43,920 nucleotides of DNA, from NCBI GenBank assembly GCA_016204355.1, contig JACQKT010000014.1:1-43920 (forward strand). Direction: 5' to 3'. This document shows positions 33,031-43,920 of the stretch, piece after piece; position 1 is the first letter of the stretch; each line of letters starts with the position of its first letter. The notes beneath the pieces were generated by a model. It did not search any database, was not told where the DNA came from, and saw nothing but the letters and a program-made list of their open reading frames with translations. The translations under genes were made by a program, and so were the position numbers. This stretch comes from Candidatus Liptonbacteria bacterium. GTDB lineage: Bacteria; Patescibacteriota; Minisyncoccia; UBA6257; 2-01-FULL-56-20.

Positions 33031-34989
33031 ATGCAAAATTTTTCGAGAAATAATTTTTTCACCGCCCCCGTTTTTGTTCTCGCTCTTATTTTGGCCGTTT
33101 CTTTGTCCCTTATGCTTTGGGCGTCTTCGGGCGATTCGGCAATAATGGACGAACTGGCGCATATCCCCGCGGGCTACGGATACGTCAACAATCTCGATTA
33201 TCGCTTGAATCCCGAACACCCTCCTTTGGTAAAGGCGTTGTCGGCTATTCCTCTCGTTTTTTCAGATTTGAATTTTCCGACAACCCAAAACTCCTGGAAG
33301 AATGAAGTTAACGGCCAATGGACGATGGGAACGTCCTTTCTATACGAATCCGGCAATGACGCGGATTACATATTGCGTTCTGCCAGAATTGCTCCGATAT
33401 TCCTGACTTTGATATTGATAATTCTGATTTATGTCTGGTCTGCCAAACTCCTCGGAAACTGGTGGGGGCTTTTGTCGGCTTTCATGTTCGGATTATCACC
33501 GACAATTCTTGCGCACGGCCATTATGTAACAACGGACATCGGTGCGGCTTTCGGAATTGCTCTTTCGACGTATTTTTTTATAAAATTTTTGTTTTCTCCG
33601 TCGCTTTGGCGTCTTTTTGCCGCGGGGCTAGCCTTCGGAGCGGCACAACTAATGAAATTCTCGGCAGCTCTTCTTATCCCCTACCTGGCCGTTGTCATGC
33701 TGTTCTTTTTCGTCTATATGGTTTGCAAAGACTGGGAAAAAACCGCCGCCGGGGCGAGACTGAAAAGATTTTCGTTGCGCGCTTTCCGGTATTTCAAATC
33801 ACTGATAATTATTTTTGTCGTAGGATATATAGTTATAGTTTATCCGGCGTATTTCATCTTCACGTTAAATTATCCCGCCGAAAAACAGGCGTCGGACACG
33901 GAATTCATACTGACGTCGTTCGCGGGCGGCCCCACTCCGGCGGGCGAAATTTGCAGTCCGGCGAGATGTCTTGCGGACCTGGACATTTGGATGTCAAGAA
34001 ATTGGATAACAAGGCCGTTCGCGGAATATCTTTTGGGCCTTTTGATGGTGATACAACGCTCAGATGGAGGAAATACGAATTATTTTATGGGCGAGGTTTC
34101 TTCAGCGGGTTCTCCGGCTTATTTCCCGACGGTTTATCTACTTAAAGAAACGATTCCGGCGTTGATAATAATTTTTACCGGATTCCTTCTCGCCGCAATT
34201 TCGGCATTAAAAAAGTTTTTTGGGGGGATCAGAAATGCCATCAAATATTTTTTTACGGACTATATCGGCTCGAACTTCGCCGAATTTTCGATGTTTGTTT
34301 TTGTTCTTTTTTACTGGTTATACAGCGTTAAAAGCCCGCTTAACATTGGCGTCCGCCATCTCATACCTACCTTCCCTTTCATTTACATACTGGCCGCGAG
34401 CGCCTGGAAAAGATGGCTCTATTCCGGCCTCGCCCTGGAACTGAAACCTTTATCCGAGAGAATTGTTTCCTCAGTTAAATCAATCGGCCCGCTTTTTCTA
34501 AAATTTTCTTTCCTTATGGTGCTTCTTTTCTGGGTGGCTCTTGAAACTGCCGGCAATGCTCCCTATTTTCTTTCGTATTTCAACGAAGCAGGAGGTGGCA
34601 CCGTCGGGGGGTACAGGTTCGTAACGGATTCGAATTACGATTGGGGACAAGACCTTCTTCGCCTGCAAAAATTCGTAGACAGGCATCCGGAAATCGACAA
34701 AATAGCCATCGATTATTTCGGAGGAGGAAATCCCAAATATTATTTGGGCAACAAGGAAGTCGACTGGAGTTCTTCGAAAGGAAACCCTGCAACTCAAAGC
34801 ATGCATTGGCTTGCAGTTTCGGTTAACACCCTACAGGGAGCCATACAGCCCTTGGCGCCCGGACAAACCAGAAATTCCGCAGATGAATACGGTTGGCTTA
34901 ACTCGATAAGGGCCCGCGAACCGGGGCTTGGAGGTTTACCTCTGCCGAATTTCAGGGCAGGAACTTCGATATTCGTATACAAACTTTAA
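33031..34989 (+). CDS. GT-C membrane glycosyltransferase (ArnT/PMT-like)
   Basis: MDELAH, NPEHPPLVK, TTD, multiple TMs, DSNYDWGQD. Confidence 0.85.
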   Translation: MQNFSRNNFFTAPVFVLALILAVSLSLMLWASSGDSAIMDELAHIPAGYGYVNNLDYRLNPEHPPLVKALSAIPLVFSDLNFPTTQNSWKNEVNGQWTMGTSFLYESGNDADYILRSARIAPIFLTLILIILIYVWSAKLLGNWWGLLSAFMFGLSPTILAHGHYVTTDIGAAFGIALSTYFFIKFLFSPSLWRLFAAGLAFGAAQLMKFSAALLIPYLAVVMLFFFVYMVCKDWEKTAAGARLKRFSLRAFRYFKSLIIIFVVGYIVIVYPAYFIFTLNYPAEKQASDTEFILTSFAGGPTPAGEICSPARCLADLDIWMSRNWITRPFAEYLLGLLMVIQRSDGGNTNYFMGEVSSAGSPAYFPTVYLLKETIPALIIIFTGFLLAAISALKKFFGGIRNAIKYFFTDYIGSNFAEFSMFVFVLFYWLYSVKSPLNIGVRHLIPTFPFIYILAASAWKRWLYSGLALELKPLSERIVSSVKSIGPLFLKFSFLMVLLFWVALETAGNAPYFLSYFNEAGGGTVGGYRFVTDSNYDWGQDLLRLQKFVDRHPEIDKIAIDYFGGGNPKYYLGNKEVDWSSSKGNPATQSMHWLAVSVNTLQGAIQPLAPGQTRNSADEYGWLNSIRAREPGLGGLPLPNFRAGTSIFVYKL

Positions 34990-35317: not shown

Positions 35318-35860
35318 TCATGAATGCATATTTTTTTGTTCTCTGACTTTTCCGTAGTACCCCGATAGAACCCAATGCACAAGGAGAGCGCTTACAATGC
35401 CGATTGCGGCGCCTGCCACTATATCAAGAGGCCAGTGCACTCCGACAAAAATCCTCGCTAGACCGATTATCAAAGAAAGAATAAAGTACCATATTCCCCA
35501 TCGGCGATTCCATATGTAAATAATCAAAGATAAAGCGAAAAAAAGAGCTGCGTGACCGGAAGGCATGGAACTTCCGCTCTCGGAGATCAAAGCTTGGAAG
35601 CTCAGTGTTTCAAGCGGCCTTGGCGAGTAATAAAAAAAATTGATTATTTCTGTTATAAGACCCCTGCTCAAAATTACGGCGATCGCCGCTTCGCTGGAAA
35701 AGAAAAGTTTTAACCGCCATCCCGGCTGCAGAATAACAAGCCAAATAAATGCCGCGTACAAAAAATAAGGCAGGTATTTGGCGGCAAAAATGCCCACTAC
35801 ATCCAAAAAAAAGCCGCGCCCGCTGAGTCCGTGAATAAAATTGAAAATCAGAGAATCCAT
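35318..35860 (-). CDS. PAP2 phosphatase (undecaprenyl-diphosphatase BcrC-like)
   Basis: RP, SMPSGHA, ARIFVGVHWPLD. Confidence 0.9.
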   Translation of the reverse strand: MDSLIFNFIHGLSGRGFFLDVVGIFAAKYLPYFLYAAFIWLVILQPGWRLKLFFSSEAAIAVILSRGLITEIINFFYYSPRPLETLSFQALISESGSSMPSGHAALFFALSLIIYIWNRRWGIWYFILSLIIGLARIFVGVHWPLDIVAGAAIGIVSALLVHWVLSGYYGKVREQKNMHS

Positions 35861-36131: not shown

Positions 36132-36596
36132 TCAGAAAGGCAGGTCTTCGGCTTTTATTTCTTCGTTGTCGTCTATATTTATCACCGGTATATCGTTTTC
36201 CTGTTTGCCGACCGTAGAACGCCCTTCCCGAGTTTCTTTTGGTGGGAAATTGCCGTCTGCGGGACGCGCCGGACGTGGACCGAGCTGCATGCGCTCGCAA
36301 ATGATTTCCGTTGTTTTTCTGGCTTGCCCCTGTTTGTCTTGCCATGAACGCGTTTGAATTCTTCCTTCTATCAAAACTACGCTTCCTTTCGTAAGAAATT
36401 GGCTCGCCACTTCCGCCTGCCTTCCCCAGACTACGACATTGTGGAATTCCGTTTCTTCCTTTCTGCTGCCGCTTTTATCGTTCCAAACACGGTTTGTCGC
36501 GACGCTGAAACTGGTAACCGACTGCCCTCCGGGGGTAGTGCGCAATTGAGGATCCGCCGTCAGCCTGCCCAAAATGAAAATTTTATTTAGATTCAT
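36132..36596 (-). CDS. ssb: Single-stranded DNA-binding protein
   Basis: MNLNK..GRLTADP, EGRIQTRSW, C-terminal DLPF. Confidence 0.97.
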   Translation of the reverse strand: MNLNKIFILGRLTADPQLRTTPGGQSVTSFSVATNRVWNDKSGSRKEETEFHNVVVWGRQAEVASQFLTKGSVVLIEGRIQTRSWQDKQGQARKTTEIICERMQLGPRPARPADGNFPPKETREGRSTVGKQENDIPVINIDDNEEIKAEDLPF

Positions 36597-36698: not shown

Positions 36699-37112
36699 TT
36701 ATTGAAGAATTTCTTTAAGCTGCTTTTCAAGAGCTTCGTTGCTGAGATGCGAAGGCTGTTTTTTTTCAATGGTCGGAGCGACTGAGGGTTTTCTTCTAGC
36801 GGGGTACTGATGTTTTTCCTTCGATTTCATCAACGGCGGAGTGATGATAAGAAATCTCAAGACAATCGGCTGAACGCGCAATTGTTTCTCCAAACCTGCC
36901 ATTTCGGACGGTAAAATGTTGAAGTGGAAATAACCAAAAAAGGCTTCTTCCCTCTTTTCAATGGGATAAGCGAGAGGAATTCTTAAAAGCGGGCTTTCGA
37001 AAATAATTTCTCCGCCGGCACGTTTCAGCGATTCGCCCATCCGTTTAGCGCCCTCTTCGTCGGCCGACACGAAAGAAATTTCGTAGGGTTTTTTATCGTT
37101 AAATTCTTCCAT
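36699..37112 (-). CDS. rpsF: 30S ribosomal protein S6
   Basis: YEI, LAYPI, VLRFLI; rpsF-ssb-rpsR synteny. Confidence 0.9.
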   Translation of the reverse strand: MEEFNDKKPYEISFVSADEEGAKRMGESLKRAGGEIIFESPLLRIPLAYPIEKREEAFFGYFHFNILPSEMAGLEKQLRVQPIVLRFLIITPPLMKSKEKHQYPARRKPSVAPTIEKKQPSHLSNEALEKQLKEILQ

Positions 37113-37150: not shown

Positions 37151-40100
37151 TCAATTTCCGGCAGCTTCTTTATTCTGTTCCGTCTTTTGCGACGACAGCG
37201 GAGACACTCCTTCAGCATAAGTTCTTTCTTCTTTTTCTCTCTTTCCCCCGGTGGGTACAAGCCGGCCGATTATCACGTTTTCTTTCAATCCGCGGAGTGA
37301 ATCGACACGTCCTTCAAGAGAAGCCTGGACCAGTACGCGCGCCGTATCCTGGAAAGAAGCTGCGGAAAGGAAACTTTCCGTGGAAAGAGCGACTCTCGTA
37401 ATACCCAAAAGAAGCTGCTGCGCTCTGGCCGGCTGTTTGCCTTTTCGTTTCAACTCCCTGTTAATTTCAAGGAACTTTGATTTGTCTATGACTTCTCCGA
37501 CAACCAATTCCTGCGCATCGCCGGTTTCTTTAATTCTGAGCCTTGAAAACATTTGTCTTACCATGACCTCTATATGCTTGTTGTTTATCGAAGCTCCTTC
37601 CGCTGAATATATTTTTTGGACTTCGTTGATTATATAGCGAACCACTTCTTTGCTACCTTTGTACTCAAGGAGTTCCTGAAGATCGATATGCCCTTCGGAA
37701 AGCTGTTGTCCGGCGACGACATCATCACCGACCTCAACGAAAAGAAGCGCGGCTCTCGGTACGGAATACTCCATCGTTTTTTTGTTCGCTTTCTTTTTCT
37801 TTGTTTCCCTCTTTTCTTTGACCCCGATGGTTATTATTTTAAGGGCTCCTTTTTGTTCTATTTTTTCGACTTTCCCGTCCGCAGACGACAGAATCGCCTT
37901 ACCTTTCGGAGGGCGCGCCTCAAAAAGTTCTTCTACGCGTGGCAAGCCATGTGTGATATCTAAACCCGCCACGCCTCCGACGTGGAAAGTTCTCAATGTG
38001 AGCTGCGTTCCAGGTTCTCCTATCGACTGCGCCGCGATTATTCCCACTGCTTCGCCCGTCTTTATGGGTTCGTTCTTGCTCAAATCGAGCCCGTAACAGC
38101 GGCGGCAAAAACCGTAAAGCGTTTTACATGAAATCGGCGAGCGGATTTTCACGGATTCAATTTTAGATTCCTGAATAAGTGCCGCGTCGCTTTTTTCTAT
38201 TATATTGCCTGCGCGCACAATTATTTTTTTTCCGGATTTAATATCCTCGGCTGCGGTCCTTGAGAAAAGAAGTGTTTCAACGGACTGGCCGATGTCTTTA
38301 GCGTCTTTCAAAAAGACTTCTATGCCTTCAGTGGTGCGGCAATCGTCATCTTTTATGGTAAGTTCCTGTGAAACATCTACAAGCCTTCTTGTTAGGTATC
38401 CTGCCTGAGCAGTTTTCAGAGCCGTGTCGGTCATTCCTTTCCTGGCGCCTCTCGTGGAAATGAAATATTCAAGGACGCTGAATCCTTCCTTAAAGGATGA
38501 CTTTATCGGCAGCTCCAAAGTTTCGCCCTGCGGGTTTTGAACCAATCCTTTCATTCCCATCATCTGAATAGGCTGGGCCCACGACCCTCTGGAGCCGGAA
38601 TCTATGATTTGATGTATCGGATTTCCTTTCTCGAAAGTCGATGTAACATATTTGGTTACTTCTGTTTTGGCGTTTTCCCAAACGCTTATAACCCTTGCCT
38701 TTCTTTCGGCATCAGTCAGAAGGCCTTGTATGTATTGCTCGCGAATGACGGCTATCTGGTCCTCGGCATTTTTGATAATGCCCTTCTTTTCTTTCGGAAT
38801 CACCAAGTCGGCCATAGCCCATGTTATTCCGGAGCGGGTAGCCATTTTGAAACCGAGATCTTTAACTCTTACGAGAATTTCCGTCGCTTTTTCCAAGCCG
38901 AGATGAACAACGAGCGATTCGATAAATTTGGAAAGTTTACGCTTATTGAATGTATCTTTCGCTTTGAAATTTTCCGGTACTTCTCCCAGAATGCCGTTGA
39001 AAATAGCCCTCCCTAAAGTGGTTTTTTCGCTGCCCATTCTGATCGGAGCATGGAGAGAAACAAACCCGTTTTCATAAGCAATAAGGCCTTCTTCGAGACT
39101 TTCAAAAGCCTTGTCCTTGCCCTTGCCATTTTCGTCGATTCTCGTTAGGTAGTATATTCCCAAAACAACGTCGTTGGTCGGCAATGCCACAAGGTCGCCC
39201 GTGGCGGGTTTCAGAATATTGTGATTGGCGGACATAATCTCGGCGGCTTCCTTTTGAGCCTGATCCGAAAGCGGCAAATGGACGGCCATCTGGTCTCCGT
39301 CGAAATCCGCGTTGAAAGCCACGCAAACAAGCGGCGGTATTTGTATGGCAAGCCCTTCTATAAGAAGCGGTTTGAACGCCTGTATTCCGAGACGGTGCAA
39401 TGTCGGCGCGCGATTCAAAAGAACCCTGCGGTCTTTGATTATTTCTTCGAGTATTGCGTAGATTTCGTCTCCGGCCTGCTCGATAAGCCGATTTGCGTTC
39501 CTTATAGTGTGAGCCATTCCCCTCTTAATTATTTCATGGATGACAAACGGCCGGAAGAGCTCGAGAGCCATTTTTTTCGGCAGACCGCATTCGTCCAAAT
39601 CGAGATTCGGCCCGACGACGATTACGGAACGTCCGGAGTAATCGACACGTTTTCCGAGAAGATTTTGCCTGAACCTTCCCTGTTTCCCCTTCAACATGTC
39701 GGCGAGAGAACGCAGCGGTCTTCTTTGTGCGGACATTTGCTGCGTGCCGAATCTCGTCGAATTGTCTATCAGTGCGTCAACCGACTCCTGAAGCATTCTT
39801 TTTTCATTTTTGATTATCACCTCCGGAGCTTTTATTTCCATGAGCCGCTTCAACCTGTTGTTTCTGTTTATAACGCGGCGATAAAGATCATTAAGGTCCG
39901 AAGTCGCATATCTTCCTCCATCCAGCGCCACCATAGGGCGGAGATCCGGAGGCAGAACAGGCAAGGCCGTGAGAATCAGCCACTCTGGGCGGATTCCGTT
40001 TTTGAACATGGAACGGAAAAGTTTCAACCTTCTCAGGGCTTTGTTCTCCGCCGGTCCGGATTGTTTTGGAGAACCGGTTTCTTTTTCCATTTTTTGGATC

Positions 40101-43100
40101 TCGCTCTTGAGATCCATTTTTTCGAGAATCTTTCTTATCGCTTCCGCGCCGCTGGCAGCAATAAAAACGTTCCCGAACCTTCTGCTCAGTCTGAAATATT
40201 CCGATTCGCTGAGAACGAGTCCCGGCCTGAGATTGAGAAGGGTCGATTTTATCTGACTGGCCGCGTATTCCAGCTCATCGGAGGCTTTCTTGACGACTTT
40301 TTTGGTGTTTCCGGTTCTGACTGTTTTTATTTTTCCTTTAAGTTCACGCTCGATTTCCTCCAGTGCCGCTTTTCGGTTTCCTTCGTCAACCTCAGTGACA
40401 ACGTAATCGACGTAATAAATGACGCGCTCGAGTTTCGAAGAAGGAACGTCGAGCATCAGGCTTAGTCTTGAAGGTATGGCTTTGAAAAACCATATATGCG
40501 CAACCGGTGCCGCCAAATTTATATGCCCGAGCCTTTCGCGTCTCACGGAAGCCCTGGTTACTTCTACGCCGCATCTGTCGCAAACAACGCCCTTATATCT
40601 TATTCTTCTGTATTTGCCGCAATAACATTCGTAATCCTTGACCGGACCGAATATGCGCTCCGAAAAAAGACCGTCTTTCTCCGGGCGCTGAGTCCGATAG
40701 TTTATCGTTTCGGGTTTTATCACTTCTCCGTGTGACCACTTGTTTACTATGTCCTCGGGCGAAGCGGGACTTATTTTCAGCGCCTTGAAATCATCTCTGT
40801 GGCTCGCCTCGGATTCATAAATGGGCTCGATATTCATTGAAAGAGCTTTCAGTTCGCTTACAAGGACATTGAACGTAGCAGGAATGTTTGGTTCCTTTAT
40901 CTGTTCGCCGCGTATTATAGACTCGTAAGCAGCCGAACGCCCCATGACGTCGTCGGATTTGATGGTCAGCATTTCCTGCAAAACATGGCGCGCGCCGTAG
41001 CCTTCCAACGCCCAGACTTCCATCTCTCCGAATCTTTGTCCTCCGAATTGAGCTTTTCCTCCGAGCGGTTGCTGGGTAATCAGCGAGTAAGGGCCTATCG
41101 AACGCATATGCACTTTGTCTTCAACAAGGTGATTGAGTTTCATCATGTAAATTGTTCCTACAGTAACCTTTTGGTCGAAAGACTCTCCCGTTTGCCCGTT
41201 GTAAAGAACCATTTTCCCGTCCTCGGGCAAATTGGCTTTTTTGAGTTCCGCCCTTATTTCCTCTTCGTTGGCCGAATCCAGTCCCGGAGTAACGGCGCGA
41301 TAGCCCTGCTCGGAGGCGGCCCAGCCGAGGTGCGTTTCCAAAATTTGTCCGAGATTCATACGCGAAACCACGCCCAAAGGATTCAAAATTATGTCCACGG
41401 GCGTTCCGTCTTCGAGATAAGGCATATCCTCAACCGGCCTCACCTGCGAAATCACGCCTTTGTTCCCATGCCGTCCCGCCAGCTTGTCGCCAGCCTGGAC
41501 TTTCCTGAGATGCGCTACCTCGACCTGAATTCGTTTGATAACTCCTACCTCCAATTTGTCTCCTTGGTCACGGGAAAATATTTTTACGCCGACAACGCGG
41601 CCGCGTTTGCCGTGAGGCATTGTGAGCGAAGTATCTTTAACGTCGCGAGCTTTTTCTCCGAAAATCGCGCGGAGTAATCTTTCTTCGGCGGTCAGCTCCG
41701 TTTCTCCTTTCGGAGATATCTTGCCCACGAGAATGTCTCCGGCTTTAACTTCGGCGCCCATACGCACTATTCCTTCCTCATCCAAGTTTTTCAGTTTTTC
41801 TTCTGCTACGTTAGGAAGGTCCGGCGTTGTTATTTCCGGACCGAGTTTGGTGTCACGGACGTCGCAATAAAAATCTTCAATATGTATGGAAGTAAAAAGA
41901 TCGTCGCGAGCAACGCGTTCTGATATTATTATCGCGTCTTCGAAGTTCGCGCCTTCCCATGACATGAAGGCAACTTTCAGATTTTGTCCGAGAGCAAGAA
42001 TTCCGTCTTCCGTCGACGGCCCGTCTATCAAAACTTCTCCTTTTTTAACCGCCTGCCCTTGCGAAACAAGAGGTTTTTGGGAAATGCACGTATATTGGTT
42101 AGAACGCTTGAATTTCGTAAGAGTGTGGACTTTCTTTTCTTTGCCGTATTGCACGGTAACCGAACCGGCGTCAACCGCCACTATTTTCCCGTCTGCTTCC
42201 GCGCGCACAACGTATCCGGAATCGCCGGCGGATTTTTCTTCCTGTCCGGTCATCACGTGCGGTGCCTTCGGCTTTATAGAGGGAACGGCCTGCCTTTGCA
42301 TATTCGAGCCCATCAGCGCGCGGGAGGCGTCCGTGTGCTGCAAAAACGGGATAAGCGAGGCGGCTATACTTACGAATTGATGTGGAGAAACTTCTATCAA
42401 GTCAATCTCTTCGGCAGGATAAGTTCCAACCTCTCCGCTGAATCTCGCTTCCAAAACGTCGCCGGAAAGTCTGTCTCCTTCCGTGCGCGGAACAGCCGAG
42501 TGAACTATCTTGTGTTTTTCCTCTTCAAGCGCGTCCAGCCAGACTATTTCATGGGTAACTTTTCCGTTTTTCACTTTGGCATAAGGCGTCACCAAAAACC
42601 CGAAATCGTTCACACGCGCGAATCCGGAAAGATAGTTTATCAAACCGATGTTGGTCCCTTCCGGAGTAAGTATCGGGCATATTCTCCCATAATACGAATG
42701 ATGAACGTCACGGACTTCGAAGCTTGCATGTTCTCTCCTTAGTCCTCCCGGACCGAGGGCGGAAAGGCGTCTCTTGTGCTCGAGTTCGGCCAAAGGATTC
42801 ACCTGGTCCATGAATTGCGAAAGCTGCGAAGAAGCGAAGAATTCCTTAACTACCGCGTTGATGGGACGGAAGTTTATAAGCTGGGCGGGAGTAAGAGAAT
42901 CCTTGTCGAGAGTGGACATTCTGTCCTGGATAATTCTTCTCAGGCGGGCCAAGCCGACGCGAAGACGTCCCTGGAGGAGCTCTCCGACAGACTTGAGCCG
43001 CCGATTGCCGAGATGGTCTATATCGTCGGGCTTTGCCGCTGGATCGTTGTTCAATTTTATAATTTCCCTGACGATGGAGATAAGATCATCAAGCTTAAGA

Positions 43101-43920
43101 AGGCGTTCTTCCTCTTTTTTCTTGTTAACTACCGCAAGCCGCTGGTTGAGCTTGAATCTCCCTACCGGCGAAAGGTCGTAACGTTCGAAGCGCTGAAATA
43201 TGGAATCCACAAGGTTCTTTGCCGTAGCAGGCGTTGCGGGATCTCCCGGCCTCAAACGGCGGTATATTTCGACATAAGATTCGTCGATGTTCTTGGCGAC
43301 ATCTTTTTTCAGAGTGGCGTCCATGTACCGGATGGAACCTTTGTCTATGTCCTGGAATCTCGACTTCAATTCTTCTTCCGACGCTCCGAAAACTCTCAAA
43401 AGGTCCGTCACCGGAACTTTCCTGTTCCTGTCTATTTTTACACCTATCACTCCGTCGGGATCGGTTTCGAACTCGAGCCACGCTCCGCGGTTCGGTATGA
43501 CTTTGGCTCCGAACAACTGGCGGTCGTGCCAAACCGACGAAGTAAAATAAACACCCGACGATCTTATCAATTGCGAAACAACAACTCTTTCAACACCGTT
43601 TATTATAAAAGTTCCTCTGTCGGTCATGGCGGGAAAATCGCCGAAATATATTTCTTGCGAATTGGGCTGTCCCGCTTTCTTGTTTTCTAGCCTTACTTTT
43701 ATATAAAGAGGTATTTCGTATGTTCCGTCTTTATAAATGACTGTTGCTTCGTCGGCTTTCGGTTTTTCAAAACGAAAATCCTCGAAATAAAGTTCGAGTT
43801 CTTTTCCGGTGTGATCGCGTATCGGAGAAACCTCTTCGAGAAGTTCCCGCATCCCCTCCTTCAAAAACCACTGATATGATTTTATTTGTATTTCATTAAG
43901 ATCTGAAGGAACTCCTATCG
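37151..43920 (-). CDS. rpoBC: Fused RNA polymerase beta-beta' subunit, 5' end outside the window
   Basis: One frame holds beta motifs ([21 protein letters not shown]) then beta' motifs ([24 protein letters not shown]); frame stays open upstream of 43864 to the edge (..[17 protein letters not shown]). Confidence 0.96.

Follow-up and report, generated by a model that had tools for sequence, protein, structure and literature searches.

A natural rpoB-rpoC fusion with a conserved short linker in a family of Paceibacterota

Background

Must beta and beta', the large subunits of bacterial RNA polymerase, be separate polypeptide chains? This is an old question that has been answered by one engineered Escherichia coli construct and two natural lineages. 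In the assembled enzyme, the C-terminus of beta adjoins the N-terminus of beta', which is why a short tether between the two can be tolerated. The same question is raised by a 43,920-nucleotide stretch of DNA from Candidatus Liptonbacteria bacterium (contig JACQKT010000014.1; hereinafter, the window), in which one reading frame on the minus strand, rpoBC, runs through both the rpoB and the rpoC parts. We find that rpoBC is very probably a genuine, vertically inherited in-frame rpoB-rpoC fusion in Paceibacterota (Candidate Phyla Radiation (CPR)/Patescibacteria), the only gene for either subunit, that is translated as one chain of ~2270 residues (~250 kDa).

Three sources provide the background against which this gene can be compared. 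In Helicobacter and Wolinella, rpoB and rpoC are fused and encode one polypeptide of ~2900 amino acids (Gupta 2006, PMC1557499, citing Zakharova 1999); fused rpoB/rpoC genes are described for Helicobacteraceae and Wolbachia (PMC7483510, citing Lane & Darst 2010); and an engineered E. coli beta-beta' fusion is reported to be functional (preprint 10.1101/2021.11.05.467461).

A single frame and a single copy

In the translated rpoBC frame, the Pfam Rpb2 domains span residues 7-1032 and the Rpb1 domains 1-5 span residues 1043-2176, that is, a complete beta is followed by a complete beta' with neither a stop codon nor a frameshift between them, and the beta' module opens directly at the conserved F-x-A-L-K-I-x-x-A-S-P motif (module boundaries are given in Table 1). 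The protein passes both NCBIfam models for rpoB, namely NF001616 (1481.1 bits against a cut-off of 896) and TIGR02013 (1460.7 bits against 801.15), as well as the rpoC model TIGR02386 (1516-1519 bits against 963.5, over profile positions 2-1141 of 1147). A preliminary description of this DNA had noted a single open reading frame of more than 2237 amino acids and, at positions 40790-40825, a 12-residue join without a stop codon, spacer or fresh start codon. The first statement is confirmed, the value of 2237 being obtained when the same minus-strand frame is counted from an internal TTG at position 43864, and for the join, both the coordinates and the translation agree exactly with ours.

The window is the entire contig of the source genome (G000:C24:1-43920), and the N-terminus of beta is therefore cut off by the contig end. 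Residue 1 of the window protein aligns to residue 16 of the closest full-length relatives, and because these relatives start 15 residues earlier, about 15 N-terminal residues of beta are missing. The source genome comprises 693,568 bases in 28 contigs and is 90.4% complete, with 0.02% contamination. Its small size would fit the host dependence surmised in the preliminary description. The only rpoC match to the TIGR02386 profile in this genome is the fused gene itself, with the proviso that, the genome being 90% complete, a second copy of rpoB or rpoC could lie in the missing part.

Inheritance of the fusion within the family

Using residues 880-1200 of the fused protein as the query, we searched the genomes of the GTDB family to which the source genome belongs (f1). 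Matches were detected in 22 of the 24 other f1 genomes, in each case as one stop-free alignment across the junction, and the sample of the order described below added eight more f1 genomes, all of them fused, for a total of 30 of 32. The remaining two genomes are uninformative: no rpoC was found in G008, and what G017 has of rpoC is its C-terminal portion, located at the end of a contig. The fusion is present, then, in independent assemblies of related organisms.

The fused protein is also represented in a collection of 5.8 billion proteins: the 161-residue junction region is covered 100%, with 79-93% identity, in the best 120 clusters, and 106 of these 120 are 2240-2307 amino acids long, the remainder being truncated. 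These clusters originate from NCBI, JGI, ENA and Logan assemblies and carry the organism labels Patescibacteria group, Candidatus Paceibacterota, Candidatus Liptonbacteria and Minisyncoccia, with the protein names limited to "subunit beta'", "subunit beta" or "hypothetical protein". Among named genome records, the nearest one, "Candidatus Paceibacterota bacterium" (L014; 80% identity), is fused as well. A locus search in genome contigs with universal motifs yielded mostly distant phyla, and among its best 80 loci, a set that is biased to in-frame rpoB/rpoC pairs, only L014 and a Helicobacter locus (L054) are truly fused. Thus, the suggestion that the fusion may mark a clade is borne out by all 30 informative family genomes together with the best 120 clusters, the informative close relatives being all fused rather than all split; it is no isolated case.

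Conservation of the linker and formation of the junction

At least 118 of the 120 best-cluster sequences, the query included, have a linker of the same length as the query. Several residues are kept in most or all of the 120 sequences, in particular P (112), Y (113), R/H (119), D/E (120) and the F that follows the linker (120), such that the consensus of the linker and the next residue is P-[LIV]-Y-[ED]-S-E-x-x-R-[KR]-D-[DN]-F. Purifying selection acts on the linker, although its conservation is somewhat overstated by these numbers because the search that selected these 120 nearest relatives was made with a region containing the linker itself. The more distant f1 members G244 and G007 have altered linkers of 11-14 residues.

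In the relatives with split genes, the conserved F-x-A-[IL]-K-[IL] motif begins only 1-4 residues after the start Met of beta', and the beta tail is variable, 4-50 residues long and mostly acidic and lysine-rich. In f11, the split sister family of f1, an 11-residue beta tail is followed by a stop codon, a 20-nucleotide spacer and then MQ-F-D-A-L-K-I. Given that the f1 linker is about as long as the beta tail alone, the comparison points to a junction that would have arisen by a deletion removing the stop codon, the spacer and the start codon rather than by a simple stop-to-sense change. The linker would then stand in place of four elements of the split arrangement: the acidic, variable tail at the beta C-terminus, the stop codon, the short spacer and the Met with which beta' starts.

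Comparison with known fusions

The fused gene is a further example of the kind known from Helicobacter and Wolbachia. It resembles the RpoBC of Helicobacter and Wolinella in that a single open reading frame, inherited at the level of a clade, encodes beta in the N-terminal part and beta' in the C-terminal part. Unlike Helicobacter RpoBC (~2890 amino acids, with ~30 residues between the aligned blocks in Helicobacter muridarum), the window protein is ~2270 amino acids long with a 12-residue gap, comes from a different phylum and has split sister lineages. With the Wolbachia-type RpoBC, it shares the occurrence of a fused beta-beta' in a bacterium with a reduced genome and a presumed host association, but the lineages are unrelated and the corresponding model, NF011417, has 2839 positions.

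The profile searches distinguish the window protein from both of these types. With NF007172, the Helicobacter-type RpoBC model (PRK09603), it reaches 2180.6 bits, the cut-off being 5372; H. muridarum, used as a control, passes this model with 5496 bits. With NF011417 (PRK14844), which we take to be the Wolbachia-type RpoBC model, it reaches 2023.2 bits, the cut-off being 4632. The independence from known fusions that had been surmised in the preliminary description is thus upheld by the failure of both fused-type models, the passing of the ordinary rpoB and rpoC models and the split state of the sister family.

The engineered E. coli fusion is also a tethered beta-beta', and this construct, as reported, demonstrates that such a tethered pair can work as RNA polymerase; by analogy, the window gene can be read as functional. 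The window case differs from that construct in being natural and family-wide and in having a conserved linker. Among the best 60 chains, there was no solved structure spanning both halves. Literature searches identified no report of an rpoB-rpoC fusion in CPR bacteria, and in the accessible part of a 2026 review of the phylum (PMC13293708), the terms "RNA polymerase" and "rpoB" do not occur; a fusion in CPR bacteria is apparently unreported in print. New in the present case are the conserved linker of fixed length, the evidence of repeated fusions in one order and, as a hint, a wider spread in metagenomes.

Distribution in the order, class and phylum

The sample of the order consisted of 251 genomes including the source genome, of which 236 matched; all counts given for this sample are among the matches listed, with long-linker fusions possible among the 291 lower-scoring rows outside them. 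The values of open-frame length read through stop codons, and fusions were counted only from single stop-free alignments or from inspected loci. By this count, the fusion is found in 15 f1 genomes (with the source genome), in all five matching genomes of f30 (one genus), in the single one of f8 and in one of the 14 matching genomes of f15 (G066). The three loci inspected in the latter families (G066, G053 and G031) are truly fused.

The fusions in f8 (G031), f30 (G053, G103 and three more) and the f15 genus (G066) are similar to that in the window in that small, Paceibacteria-type beta and beta' are joined by short in-frame linkers into proteins of 2220-2284 amino acids, and they likewise fail both fused-type NCBIfam models (2195-2269 bits). 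They differ in that the f1 linker is unrelated to theirs and of another length and in that the lineages form separate clades in the tree. Matches in two parts, or flagged for stop codons, with open-frame values above 2200 amino acids were considered as candidates for further fusions and rejected: all 17 inspected loci are split, with the stops located in the unaligned spacer.

No short-linker fusion was detected outside the order in the class and phylum samples (401 genomes each, including the source genome, at E <= 1e-90). The class sample yielded 31 single alignments at this threshold, stop-free only in two f1 genomes, with 1-4 in-frame stops in the other 29; the phylum sample yielded six, stop-free only in the source genome. 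Because of the threshold, both screens would miss long-linker fusions.

In many Paceibacteria, rpoB and rpoC are in the same frame and are separated by one stop codon and 1-30 nucleotides, as in G215 (TAA, 3 nucleotides and ATG) and G054 (1 nucleotide). The order sample contains 11 such single-stop in-frame rows among the matches listed, and these split Paceibacteria stand one substitution short of fusion. Apart from these, one genome of f24 (G197) has two rpoBC loci (C3:32582-33541 and C11:10645-11652): in addition to its own split copy, it includes an f1-like fused contig that is 80% identical to the query, with a contig-truncated frame of 1974 amino acids. This contig is probably mis-binned.

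Separate origins within the order

We constructed a tree from the concatenated beta and beta' sequences, with the linker excluded (41 rows, 2230 columns; IQ-TREE quick search, LG+G4 model, branch support by SH-aLRT). The tree left out G030 and Helicobacter and was rooted on two genomes of other orders. The eight f1 rows form a clade with support 100, and its sister is the split family f11 (support 98). The families f8 and f30 form a second fused clade (support 100) that is sister to f15 (support 96); within f15, the earliest branch is the fused G066, and three split genomes come after it. This topology requires a minimum of three changes between the fused and split states. The linkers consist of 12 residues in f1, ~8 in f8, 18-22 in f30 and 26 in G066, with no similarity between the lineages.

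Two histories of the fused state can be considered: a single ancient fusion in the order that was repeatedly lost through re-insertion of a stop codon, or separate fusions in f1, in f8 together with f30, and in one f15 genus. The number of changes, being only three, is blind to the distinction between gain and loss; because f8+f30 and f15 are sisters, one gain and one loss are possible within this group; and the single-stop in-frame rows imply that a switch in either direction is one mutation away. Against the single ancient fusion, the approximately unbiased (AU) test rejects the placement of all 12 fused rows in one clade, at a cost of 325.7 log-likelihood units (p-AU 6.5e-05), f1 is placed among split families, with a split family as its sister, and the linkers of the fused lineages differ in length and show no resemblance to one another. 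A single origin followed by losses therefore appears unlikely, and we conclude that at least two, and probably three, separate rpoB-rpoC fusions occurred within this order.

Further candidate fusions in metagenomes

The junction region was also used in an exhaustive HMMER search of 1.84 billion representatives, of which the best 150 hits were considered. Among these are 11 further proteins of 2153-2836 amino acids (P0138, P0141, P0161, P0164, P0168, P0169, P0182, P0184, P0188, P0203 and P0242); the alignment crosses the junction in nine of them, whereas for P0169 and P0182 the listed alignment covers a beta' stretch only. In each of the 11, matches to rpoB and to rpoC lie on a single chain, and the scores stay below both fused-type cut-offs. 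The junction is continuous, without an internal Met start, in P0138, P0141, P0164, P0169, P0188 and the fragment P0136, and the partial protein P0166 resembles the Wolbachia type. In several short fragments (P0129, P0131 and similar ones), the sequence runs through a translated intergenic spacer into the Met-start peptide that is native to beta', and these fragments likely represent sequencing errors or gene calls with a wrong genetic code rather than real fusions. Fusions may thus be more widespread than the two textbook lineages, although these are proteins only, among which read-through artefacts are possible.

The product of the fused gene

Translation of rpoBC would give one ~250 kDa chain. 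Together with two alpha subunits, this chain would form a normal core of crab-claw shape, as suggested by the adjacency of the termini in known structures and by the reported function of the synthetic fusion. The likely effect would be strict 1:1 synthesis of beta and beta' and an intramolecular beta-beta' assembly step. This effect probably amounts to a small advantage or is nearly neutral: many split relatives are one stop away from fusion (11 rows in the order sample; 29 rows with 1-4 stops in the class sample) and the fusions are fixed in few clades, a distribution that fits a nearly neutral or weakly selected change.

Alternatively, the gene might be fused and two subunits nevertheless made, either through cleavage in the conserved linker or through internal initiation of translation. 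The conserved linker residues (P-[LIV]-Y ... R-[KR]-D) might conceivably act as a recognition site. However, there is no in-frame ATG, GTG or TTG between residues 1029 and 1065 of the rpoBC frame, and no Shine-Dalgarno-like motif upstream of the flanking in-frame candidates, M1028 and V1066; nothing seen implies a dedicated protease; and the linkers found elsewhere in the order, in its other fused lineages, are unrelated to this one. We consider the production of two subunits highly improbable and expect that the fused chain would remain uncleaved.

Logan contigs from four runs bridge the linker and agree with it letter for letter, free of gaps, namely, X1 record 2 (40610-40976), X2 record 10 (40610-40979), X3 record 18 (40743-40893) and X4 record 23 (40633-41020). 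This read-derived material, in the form of assembled contigs, thus contains no stop codon or indel at the junction, in keeping with the preliminary description. A single X1 contig shows one odd joint (40684/40956), with a side of 21 letters; we attribute it to noise that stems from other organisms and arises at a conserved motif. The four runs represent four samples of one groundwater study, X1 possibly being the source sample. Chance can be set aside, since every informative relative in the family has this continuous frame. An assembly or sequencing artefact, in which a lost stop codon or an indel would have falsely joined two genes, is effectively refuted and retains next to no probability: the source record is a metagenome-assembled contig and some fragmentary "fused" representatives (e.g. 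P0129 and P0131) resemble spacer read-through, but the frame is continuous in all 30 informative family genomes, all 120 best clusters from four data sources are fused too, the contigs of the four runs show no difference at the junction, and the linker holds neither a remnant Met start nor spacer-like sequence.

Omega (PF01192) was above the cut-off in none of the 41 genomes of the order that were searched (the source genome and 40 relatives, both fused and split), with all 14 controls positive. The RNA polymerase of the whole order may lack a recognizable omega.

Several points weigh against the interpretation of rpoBC as a genuine fusion that yields one chain. The sequence alone is compatible with post-translational cleavage inside the linker, and the N-terminus of beta is missing from the contig. 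The contig evidence on the junction is only partly independent because it comes from one study, with one run possibly from the source sample. Furthermore, the absence of omega, the sole functional correlate tested, does not separate fused from split genomes because omega is undetectable in both, and fusion as compensation for the loss of omega is neither supported nor excluded. The continuous frame, the single copy, the intact domains, the family-wide inheritance, the conserved linker and the separate origin are nevertheless established, and a genuine rpoB-rpoC fusion remains by far the preferred interpretation.

Gene neighbourhood and a side observation on TGA codons

In model bacteria, rpsL-rpsG usually come after rpoC; these genes are not present downstream of rpoBC in the window, where ribosomal protein S6, SSB and a PAP2 phosphatase are encoded instead (Table 1).

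Table 1. Features of the rpoBC locus (positions in the window)
Feature	Coordinates	Strand	Remarks
Fused rpoB-rpoC (rpoBC) frame	37151..43918	-	2255 codons and stop (37151-37153); 5' end open, ~15 codons missing
Beta module, residues 1-1031	40826..43918	-	Pfam Rpb2 domains 1, 2, 3, 45, 6, 7; passes NCBIfam NF001616 and TIGR02013
Linker, 12 codons, residues 1032-1043	40790..40825	-	Stop-free, without in-frame start codon; consensus in the family: P-[LIV]-Y-[ED]-S-E-x-x-R-[KR]-D-[DN]
Beta' module, residues 1044-2255	37154..40789	-	Pfam Rpb1 domains 1-5; passes NCBIfam rpoC TIGR02386
Ribosomal protein S6 (PF01250)	36699-37112	-	Downstream of rpoBC
SSB (PF00436)	36132-36596	-	Downstream of rpoBC
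PAP2 phosphatase	35318-35860	-	Downstream of rpoBC
PMT-family glycosyltransferase	33031-34989	+	Strand opposite to rpoBC

A separate observation concerns the Paceibacteria family f7. In all six f7 genomes examined, which represent five genera (loci L130, G030:C7:2800-11100, and L137-L141 in G190, G060, G085, G229 and G107), the rpoB and rpoC frames are broken by TGA only, with 4 + 9 such codons in G030 and 6-10 in rpoC of the other f7 genomes. In G030, 10 of the 13 TGA codons align with a conserved Trp shared by 13-14 of 14 relatives, and in four further f7 genomes, 15 of the 31 TGA codons align with Trp residues of the window beta'. These alignments point to UGA being read as Trp in f7. The accessible part of the 2026 phylum review reports only UGA-to-Gly reassignment, restricted to Gracilibacteria/JAEDAM01 (PMC13293708).

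Conclusions

A bolder interpretation, which we put forward tentatively and regard as rather doubtful, is that fusion is a recurrent, selectable state, and no rare accident of Helicobacteraceae and Wolbachia alone, with at least two to three origins in one omega-less order of Paceibacteria, where the f1 tether would be a conserved structural element of fixed length, and that at least half a dozen more lineages in metagenomes share this state; in its boldest form, the tether would assume the role of omega in beta' assembly.

The fusion is a clean rare-genomic-change marker for the f1 family. Because the annotations say only "beta" or "beta-prime", marker-gene pipelines that expect two genes may be distorted. 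As a natural single-chain core of compact size, the enzyme of this family of ultra-small bacteria would lend itself to expression and structural work on transcription in CPR bacteria: its beta-beta' has only ~2270 residues, the 12-residue tether is conserved and omega is not detectable.

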